44,771 nucleotides of DNA. Source: a virus. The notes beneath the pieces were generated by a model. That model saw only the letters and a program-made list of their open reading frames with translations. It searched no databases and had not been told where the DNA came from. The stretch lies in UHGV virus genome UHGV-0180729; one strand, given 5' to 3'. The translations under genes were made by a program, and so were the position numbers. Numbering within the stretch: position 1 is the stretch's first letter; every line of letters begins with the position of its first letter. Positions 11,555 to 12,268 of this stretch are shown here, in pieces.

Positions 11555-11831
11555 CATCCTGAAACGAAGCGGCCTTGCGCCGCTGTCGCCGAGAGCGAAG
11601 ACGCGTATACACAAGCGTCGCCGTAACGCGCTGTTCCCTGAGCTACAAGAACGGCGTAAAGCTATTCGTGCCTGTGGATTCCAGAACGGGAAGGCCGTGA
11701 ATCTCGGTGAGTTTAAAACACAGGAACGAGCAGCAATCGCTAATCGGTTATTTAATTACTGGAAATCGCTTGGATATGATGATATTCCGACAAAACCACA
11801 GAGACGACAATACATCTGGAGACATAAATGA
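11538..11831 (+). CDS. Hypothetical basic protein
   Basis: ATG at 11538 (MSLATDILKR...); Arg/Lys-rich. Confidence 0.45.
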   Translation: MSLATDILKRSGLAPLSPRAKTRIHKRRRNALFPELQERRKAIRACGFQNGKAVNLGEFKTQERAAIANRLFNYWKSLGYDDIPTKPQRRQYIWRHK

Positions 11832-12268
11832 CTACAATCGCGTTTGATGGAAAGACAATGGCCTGCGACACCCGTGTTGTGTGCGGAAGTAACTGTTACA
11901 ACACAGACACAAAGATATATGAGAATGATTTCGCTATTATTGGGGTGGCTGGTGATGCTGGGGTAGGGGCTATGCTAATTGATTGCCCTGGTATTCTTCT
12001 GGCAAAGCACTATGACTTCGATTTCGAAGCCCTGGTGTACGTGAAAGATACAGAAAAGGTGTATAAAGTCGCGTTTTATAAATCGTGGGATTGTGCACTT
12101 AGTTCAGTTATTCCGGTTGCTGATGGCTTTGCCGCAGTAGGCTCCGGTGCGCCTTATGCACTGGCAGCTATGGAATGCGGGTATTCGTCACATGGTGGGG
12201 TAGCTGTCGCCTCGAAGTTCGACATTAACACCGGCGGCAAGATTATTACCAAACAACTATTAGGATAA
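11828..12268 (+). CDS. HslV/proteasome beta-subunit-like Ntn hydrolase
   Basis: N-terminus MTTIAFDGK (Thr immediately after Met, as in HslV TTIVSV); GSG-containing AVGSGAPYALAAME resembles the HslV GSGGxYAxAA segment. Confidence 0.5.
   Translation: MTTIAFDGKTMACDTRVVCGSNCYNTDTKIYENDFAIIGVAGDAGVGAMLIDCPGILLAKHYDFDFEALVYVKDTEKVYKVAFYKSWDCALSSVIPVADGFAAVGSGAPYALAAMECGYSSHGGVAVASKFDINTGGKIITKQLLG

Follow-up and report, generated by a model that had tools for sequence, protein, structure and literature searches.

The gene at positions 11828 to 12268 of the viral genome UHGV-0180729 (44,771 nucleotides, analysed at its full length and hereafter called the window) encodes a protein of 146 amino acids (aa) that is almost certainly an N-terminal nucleophile (Ntn) hydrolase of the PPH family. 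PPH proteins, of about 145 aa, are minimal offshoots of the proteasome-beta superfamily of MEROPS T1-type Ntn hydrolases, descending from its HslV/BPH branch. The mechanism that we propose for it, an accessory threonine peptidase that would be independent of HslU and made late in infection, has as a whole a probability of about 0.6 in our estimate. The gene and its candidate ribosome-binding signal are placed as follows:

11828..12268, stop codon included, plus strand: PPH gene, coding for a 146-aa compact proteasome/HslV-like N-terminal-threonine hydrolase
11818..11822, plus strand: Shine-Dalgarno-like GGAGA, 6 nt 5' of the ATG, read from the sequence

The translation of the open reading frame (ORF), MTTIAFDGKTMACDT...AVGSGAPYALAAME...KQLLG, begins at an ATG with the N-terminus MTTIAFDG, in exact agreement with a preliminary description of this DNA, which had reported a 146-aa ORF with this start at the same coordinates. 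The internal segment AVGSGAPYALAAME corresponds to residues 103-116 and contains a GSG motif. No in-frame start lies upstream of 11828 before the preceding stop codon; since 11828 is thus the first start after that stop, Thr can only be residue 2, and a propeptide is excluded. That the gene is real follows from its median dN/dS of 0.12 (28 pairwise comparisons among the window gene and seven Kagunavirus-type orthologues), which indicates strong purifying selection, and from the presence of relatives in 307 phage records as found by tblastn.

Searches with the single sequence are weak. The NCBIfam HslV and 20S models match the window protein at E-values of 1e-3 to 2e-2, the HslV equivalog models stay far below their cut-offs, with 14.9 bits for TIGR03692 (157.75 required) and 14.4 for NF003964 (137 required), and phmmer against the PDB reaches HslV at E 0.2. 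Strong evidence comes from the family level. The window protein matches PHROG 1040 (“peptidase HslV family”) at E 1.4e-32, and an exhaustive search of 1.84 billion representatives (E <= 1e-3, clusters at 50% identity) returned 1,281 clusters containing PPH relatives, the best 150 of which are mostly 135-160 aa long, with alignments starting at residue 1. An alignment of 123 diverse members, referred to as A2, served both as a profile and as input for AlphaFold2. Against PDB sequences this profile finds HslV at E 3.6e-9, BPH at 4e-8 and 20S beta5 at about 1e-6, and the resulting model (pLDDT 91.9, pTM 0.87) has the four-layer alpha-beta-beta-alpha Ntn fold, superposes on proteasome beta and HslV, and gives BPH (5ovt) and HslV (1m4y) as top Foldseek matches. 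At least 37 viral structure clusters in BFVD have a PPH-like fold. The preliminary description had proposed a proteasome-beta/HslV-type Ntn-hydrolase fold, to be checked by alignment and profile search and by structure prediction with superposition on HslV; the family profile, the model and the Foldseek matches all back it, though the single-sequence scores are weak. The likeness to HslV that it had drawn stands at the level of the superfamily and does not extend to orthology: the protein falls in a clade that lacks helix H2 and fails the curated HslV and Proteasome cut-offs.

The active site can be followed residue by residue. Conservation was counted in 261 family sequences, which for the most part share only 30-40% identity with the window protein:

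11831..11833, plus strand: Thr2 codon (Thr1 after removal of Met; predicted nucleophile), aligned with HslV Thr1; Thr in 255/261 (98%), Ser in 5/261 (2%)
11867..11869, plus strand: Asp14 codon (proteasome/HslV Asp17); Asp in 259/261 (99%)
11912..11914, plus strand: Lys29 codon (Lys33); Lys in 251/261 (96%) and invariant in A2
11951..11953, plus strand: Gly42 codon (oxyanion-hole Gly47; HslV Gly48); Gly in 257/261 (98%)
12140..12148, plus strand: codons of the GSG motif, Gly105-Ser106-Gly107 (Ser106 being Ser129); first Gly 261/261, Ser 244/261 (93%) with a further 9 Thr (3%), second Gly 261/261
12221..12232, plus strand: codons of Asp132 through Thr135 (Asp166 and Ser169, active-site hydrogen-bond network); Asp in 251/261 (96%), Thr/Ser/Cys in 260/261 (99.6%)

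Residues T2, D14, K29, G42, S106, D132 and T135 thus align with Thr1, Asp17, Lys33, Gly47, Ser129, Asp166 and Ser169, and all seven positions are 93-100% conserved across the relatives. The Thr placed directly after the initiator Met, already pointed out in the preliminary description, is a family trait, as 248 of 260 sequences begin with “MT”, and the GSG segment that had been likened to the HslV core belongs, according to the alignments and the conservation counts, to an intact active site. With this conservation and the shared start, the reading of the family as Ntn hydrolases is well supported by sequence.

The PPH family was defined by Fuchs et al. 2021 as proteins of about 140 residues belonging to group I (HslV/BPH-like), borne by tailed phages or prophages of Proteobacteria, without H2, propeptide and S12/H5, and with the S1-S11 core, H3 and H4 kept (PMC8665760). 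The window protein has 146 aa, no propeptide and no S12/H5, and the median length of its family is 147 aa. In the model, DSSP assigns a lone helix (46-51) between strands 36-42 and 66-72, so that H2 is absent; helices 108-116 and 121-131, corresponding to H3 and H4, are present, and the last element is a strand (139-143). The gene is phage-borne, being found in a Kagunavirus-type window, in the 307 phage records and in 420 IMG/VR stretches.

No dedicated unfoldase accompanies the gene. The statement in the preliminary description that no partner AAA+ ATPase of the HslU type is encoded agrees with Pfam scans of the large window ORFs, which detected no HslU/Clp-type unfoldase; the only P-loop proteins among these ORFs are a DnaB-type AAA_25 helicase-primase, an SNF2 helicase and the terminase. 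Likewise, no HslU-like gene is present in the annotated relative Bas73, and none lies beside PPH in 55 related loci. This absence is one of the arguments for a dependence on the HslU of the host, by which PPH would replace or compete with HslV on E. coli HslU and redirect ATP-dependent degradation to targets useful to the phage. HslV is moreover among the closest solved relatives, and the cultured hosts of the PPH phages found are all Proteobacteria, which typically encode HslUV. HslV alone is also a poor protease that needs HslU (PMC6429459). The docking site itself argues the other way. The C-terminus of HslU inserts into a pocket between HslV subunits to which Phe54 and Phe57 (on H1), Ala79 and Lys80 (on H2) and Gln114 contribute (PMC6429459). 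In PPH the two Phe positions are occupied by Ala48 and Ile51, the H2 positions are missing, and a single six-residue helix (46-51) stands where HslV has its H1/H2 pocket. Since H2 is gone, H1 is reduced to six residues and four of the five pocket residues reside on those helices, canonical docking of HslU is unlikely as judged from the model. The sister clade BPH keeps both helices, yet its HslU-interface residues are not conserved and HslU was not pulled down with it (PMC5777263). Together with the low score of the HslV equivalog model, these points make a host-HslU-dependent protease decidedly unlikely. In relatives, ring-ring contacts run through helices H3 and H4 (PMC8665760); both are retained and highly conserved in PPH, so that a homo-oligomeric ring is plausible from the model.

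The distribution of the gene among sister phages indicates that it is accessory. The 2.5 kb around PPH match 167 phage records, led by Escherichia phage BUCT825 (91.5% identity); the others are for the most part Kagunavirus or other Guernseyvirinae siphophages. The 44.8-kb window is collinear with the 43.9-kb genome of Bas73; by sequence the window is therefore identified as a Kagunavirus-type phage. The closest PPH orthologue, in phiEc3, is 95% identical, and GenBank names the orthologues “peptidase HslV family”, “HslV family peptidase”, “ATP-dependent protease” or “protease”. When the PPH junction of Bas73 was followed through Kagunavirus-like records, 32 of 117 spanned it in full (about 73% have lost it); in the records without the gene, among those listed, the alignment comes in two pieces with a coverage of about 68%, which corresponds to the missing ORF. 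The Jerseyvirus-like junction is spanned in full by 259 of 331 records (about 22% lost). In Bas74 the upstream gene is followed directly by the holin and PPH is absent from the same site. The empty site (about 1790-1815 of locus L089) retains the last 18 nt of the PPH ORF as a deletion scar, AAACCGTTATTAGGATAA, compared with AAACAACTATTAGGATAA in the window (window positions 11820-11831 and 12248-12268); this remnant shows loss by deletion and not gain by insertion. Bas74 keeps the stop codon of the upstream gene, in the form TAA where the window has TGA. Between the PPH stop codon and the start of the holin gene, both included, its sequence equals that of Bas73 and departs from the window at three positions. 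PPH was therefore ancestral and has been deleted repeatedly, the lysis cassette being left in place. Given the losses in both groups of records, PPH is an accessory, dispensable gene and not an essential lysis or morphogenesis factor.

Two further candidates for a function were rejected. The first was an anti-defence role, sought in the phenotypes of the BASEL phages: Bas70-73 plate on normal K-12 and Bas74-76 need a host cured of cryptic prophages, Bas73 carries PPH and Bas70, Bas74 and Bas75 do not, and this lead was dropped because plating is uncorrelated with the presence of PPH. The PADLOC defence models gave no match. The second was a conserved partner immediately upstream, for which a small gene with its stop codon overlapping the PPH start seemed a candidate in several lineages; in the window it is the following:

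11514..11831, plus strand: upstream 105-aa gene (PHROG 9632, no assigned function), whose TGA overlaps the PPH ATG (ATGA, 11828-11831)

From this overlap the two genes may be translationally coupled. The proteins encoded upstream of PPH in seven lineages are non-homologous and have no informative Pfam matches, and the 105-aa gene is not an obligate partner, being kept in phages that lack PPH. Its Jerseyvirus orthologue has a weak, sub-threshold match to the AP2 DNA-binding domain (E 0.067).

Downstream, PPH is separated by a spacer of 59 nt from the first gene of the lysis cassette:

12328..12636, plus strand: holin (class I-like), TTG start (PHROG 2359, E 2.4e-32)
12626..12901, plus strand: second holin (PHROG 2508, E 1.1e-33, residues 27-117), with Met27 of ORF 12548..12901 as likely start
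12828..13412, plus strand: HNH (homing) endonuclease, between the second holin and the endolysin (PHROG 99, E 1.1e-68)
13409..13891, plus strand: endolysin, lysozyme-type (PHROG 33703 and PHROG 7)

Terminator-like sites were found at 9973-9994 and 13972-13989, with only a weak 5-pair candidate on the plus strand between them (10736-10751, 5' of PPH). The consensus scan of the plus strand detected none between PPH and the endolysin, so that PPH is probably co-transcribed with the lysis cassette. This probable shared transcript, and the order PPH-holin-holin-endolysin that is conserved in Guernseyvirinae (Bas73 of the Kagunavirus type, BPS11Q3 of Jerseyvirus), would suit a protease that processes a holin, antiholin, endolysin, spanin or a host factor in lysis timing. 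Such a link to lysis is nevertheless scarcely likely: about 85 Kagunavirus-like and about 70 Jerseyvirus-like records without PPH keep the lysis cassette, the holin leader is the same in Bas74 and Bas73 from the PPH stop onwards, and only three of 35 PPH lineages have lysis genes as their nearest recognisable neighbours. The position next to holin and endolysin, which the preliminary description had pointed out, does not indicate a function: sisters without PPH keep a closely similar cassette with an identical holin leader, and the adjacency is rare outside Guernseyvirinae.

An inverted repeat, ATCCTCC...GGAGGAT (12283-12323, plus strand), was considered as a fold masking the ribosome-binding site of the TTG-started holin and was rejected, its fold z-score of -1.3 being not significant; as it is no better than shuffled sequence, there is no sign that a fold of the holin leader matters. 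The arms of the repeat are identical in the window, Bas73 and Bas74, and they overlap the Shine-Dalgarno sequence of the holin. The stop codon of the HNH gene overlaps the start of the endolysin gene (ATGA at 13409). At the position of the HNH gene, Bas73 has a 105-nt ORF instead. The HNH insertion is rare among relatives, since only one of the 167 records (BUCT825) covers at least 80% of the 2.5-kb query.

Outside Guernseyvirinae the gene keeps other company. From the 420 IMG/VR stretches with relatives, 80 loci were fetched and 51 analysed, which with four other contexts makes up the 55 loci; their ORFs were clustered, the recurrent clusters annotated, and PPH proteins grouped at 60% identity into the 35 lineages. 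In 18 of these, the 1.6 kb or so that follow PPH on its own strand contain a gene for TerS, TerL, portal, MuF, neck or a virion protein, against a chance expectation of about 5 of 35, a rough estimate obtained with crude gene calling and without permutation control, so that the adjacency is a lead only. PPH is flanked by TerS and TerL in one metagenomic phage lineage (4123-4560 in L030, 1469-1906 in L036), and in several others it comes right before TerS or TerL. The lysis-adjacent position is thus specific to Guernseyvirinae, PPH being elsewhere mostly beside terminase or portal genes. These positions raise the option that PPH trims a scaffold, portal, head or neck component, or enters the virion. 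However, PPH is dispensable in Guernseyvirinae, where head modules are common to phages with and without it; no consistent adjacency to capsid or scaffold genes is seen; and the window gene lies 3.7 kb from TerS with a strong terminator-like hairpin between them. The boundary between lysis and terminase genes is, in addition, a known hotspot for accessory genes. A protease of assembly or packaging is very unlikely in view of these points, and the placement near terminase and portal genes fits late expression as well as an accessory-gene hotspot ahead of the terminase.

The terminator-like hairpin at 15915-15930 (plus strand) has the form GCCCTC-TACG-GAGGGC followed by a T run. Directly after it, extending to 15965 and preceding the TerS ORF (15992-16543), lies a sigma-70-like promoter composed of TGTACA, an 18-nt spacer and TATAAT. 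Hairpin and promoter (15915-15965) probably mark the start of the packaging/structural operon.

Some of the loci have features of their own. A 42-kb contig (IMGVR_UViG_3300047469_000099, loci L032 and L039) has PPH at both ends with the same neighbouring clusters, most likely owing to terminal redundancy or concatemeric assembly and not to paralogy. On a chromosome of Falsiroseomonas sp. (8001-8450 in L005), a PPH homologue lies between a glycosyltransferase gene and rpsA, with no phage genes within 8 kb and an AFG1-family ATPase gene about 2.5 kb away on the opposite strand. It may be a domesticated copy, consistent with the exceptions to a phage or prophage location that Fuchs et al. 2021 acknowledged (PMC8665760). 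In a lambdoid prophage-like locus (8440-9063 in L004), PPH is followed immediately by a “PhageMetallopep” gene (PF18894) and then by TerS and TerL, which places two predicted peptidases next to each other before the terminase; PHROGs label the family of the PF18894 protein “transposase” (PHROG 513), so that the annotations conflict.

In the mechanism that we propose, the methionine aminopeptidase of the host would cut off Met1 and expose the Thr nucleophile, by analogy with E. coli HslV, which also begins Met-Thr-Thr. The intact proteasome-type site, complete in the sequence and in the model, would then hydrolyse peptide bonds. PPH would need no unfoldase of its own and probably not the HslU of the host either, would be made in the middle to late period together with late or lysis transcripts, and would confer a conditional, non-essential benefit; as a best guess, its substrates could be unstructured host or phage polypeptides late in infection. 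The complete catalytic set combined with strong purifying selection makes an active Thr-hydrolase most likely.

Several points weigh against this mechanism and the assignment beneath it. BPH is the closest stand-alone relative of solved structure, and although its active site is intact it showed no activity in standard assays (PMC5777263), so an intact catalytic set does not guarantee a measurable peptidase activity, and the hydrolase activity of PPH is predicted for every member alike from sequence and model. The timing of expression is deduced from consensus terminator scans, and the case against HslU docking consists of absent secondary structure and non-conserved pocket residues as seen in the alignment and the model. 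The window protein appears to be an ordinary PPH member by its match in sequence and model to the published description; the published representative, WP_042125023.1 (KEGG OC.1434257), was absent from the result when clusters were looked up for 10 NCBI-sourced relatives. Finally, Pfam PF00227 (Proteasome) gives 19.0 bits, below its gathering threshold of 22.4 bits, which a few family members do exceed; homology holds all the same, because the family profile reaches HslV at the E-value given above.

The inertness of BPH also favours the alternative that PPH is not a protease but a silent decoy or inhibitor (for instance one poisoning host HslV/HslU rings), a connectase-like transpeptidase/ligase, or an amidase. 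In the same direction, connectase, a proteasome homologue lacking helices, is a sequence-specific ligase, and PPH also lacks a helix (PMC8665760 for connectase). Set against the complete catalytic set under purifying selection, we consider a non-proteolytic role highly improbable. A bolder version of the proteolytic reading, in which PPH would be an autonomous, ATP-independent viral “mini-proteasome” destroying a specific host protein late in infection (such as a stress-response, envelope or immunity factor), is unlikely. It would involve a quaternary structure unlike that of HslV or BPH, because H2 is missing, and the patchy presence among sister phages would reflect host-specific selection. 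What can be cited for it, as for a role in particle assembly, is the intact active site, purifying selection and the gene neighbourhoods. None of the four rivals considered (dependence on host HslU, a link to lysis, virion assembly or packaging, and a non-proteolytic role) is favoured by the evidence over the HslU-independent accessory peptidase.

The finding is not new: the family has had its name since 2021, its label is carried by PHROGs and GenBank, and near-identical orthologues are annotated. The preliminary description had called a phage-borne proteasome-like peptidase next to holin and endolysin unusual; the gene is not unusual, given the name of PHROG 1040, the 307 phage records, the approximately 1,280 clusters and the pre-existing GenBank labels. 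Phage HslV-like genes without HslU had also been remarked upon in genome papers (PMC7823757). Our literature searches returned no paper linking HslV to Kagunavirus or Jerseyvirus, no experimental follow-up on PPH and no paper citing the PPH paper together with phage; the papers on 590B and the historic K1 phages do not mention the gene, and XY1, the named relative of the phage in a Kagunavirus transcriptome paper, lacks it. As a discovery the gene has little value, and it has some as a pointer. Guernseyvirinae offer an unusually clean test system, with sister phages that differ locally by the deletion of nearly the whole ORF, including public members of BASEL with the gene (Bas73) and without it (Bas70, Bas74 and Bas75). 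The substrate and oligomeric state of PPH would reveal what a phage gains from a threonine protease of its own, and its study would show how small a proteasome-like enzyme can be.

Domain fusions gave no hint of a function: the C-terminal tails of seven longer relatives (194-225 aa) are heterogeneous, and when ten long relatives (185-225 aa) were scanned with Pfam no additional domain emerged. In one of them (P0376, 205 aa), residues from about 140 to 205 contain CxxCxGxG-type repeats recalling the DnaJ zinc finger, a domain that binds unfolded proteins, with no significant Pfam match. The tails of the other long relatives are unrelated, and this one is only an anecdote.

Among known systems, HslV (ClpQ) is the peptidase of the bacterial ATP-dependent protease HslUV, a dodecamer built as a double hexamer and activated by HslU and ATP. 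PPH differs from it in being about 30 aa shorter and in lacking H2, with a truncated H1 and a shorter H3-H4 region. The spacing of the conserved residues is as follows:

Thr1 to Lys33: PPH family median 26; E. coli HslV 32
Gly47 to Ser129: PPH family median 62, window protein 64; E. coli HslV 76
Tail after Ser129: PPH family median 41; E. coli HslV 51

The compaction thus appears family-wide in sequence, and PPH is not an HslV orthologue. BPH proteins (PDB 5ovs, 5ovt and 5ovu) have about 185-200 aa, H1 and H2 and a long acidic pore loop, form tetradecamers and are encoded on chromosomes in stress-linked operons (PMC5777263), whereas PPH is phage-borne and without these features: the window protein has 146 aa and no H2, and its residues 52-65 (DCPGILLAKHYDFD) contain no acidic run. 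Connectase is missing both H1 and H2, and two helices inserted between S3 and S4 cover its active site; PPH does not fit this description. The AAH family and the “HslV” genes of jumbo and phi92-like phages resemble PPH in being phage-borne and without HslU (PMC7823757, PMC12210895), but most of their products are longer, at 170-280 aa, and fall into other clusters. Finally, the window protein matches the published PPH in its length, its Met-Thr start, its Thr1/Asp17/Lys33/Gly47 set, the loss of H2 and its affinity to group I, with no substantive difference between the two.

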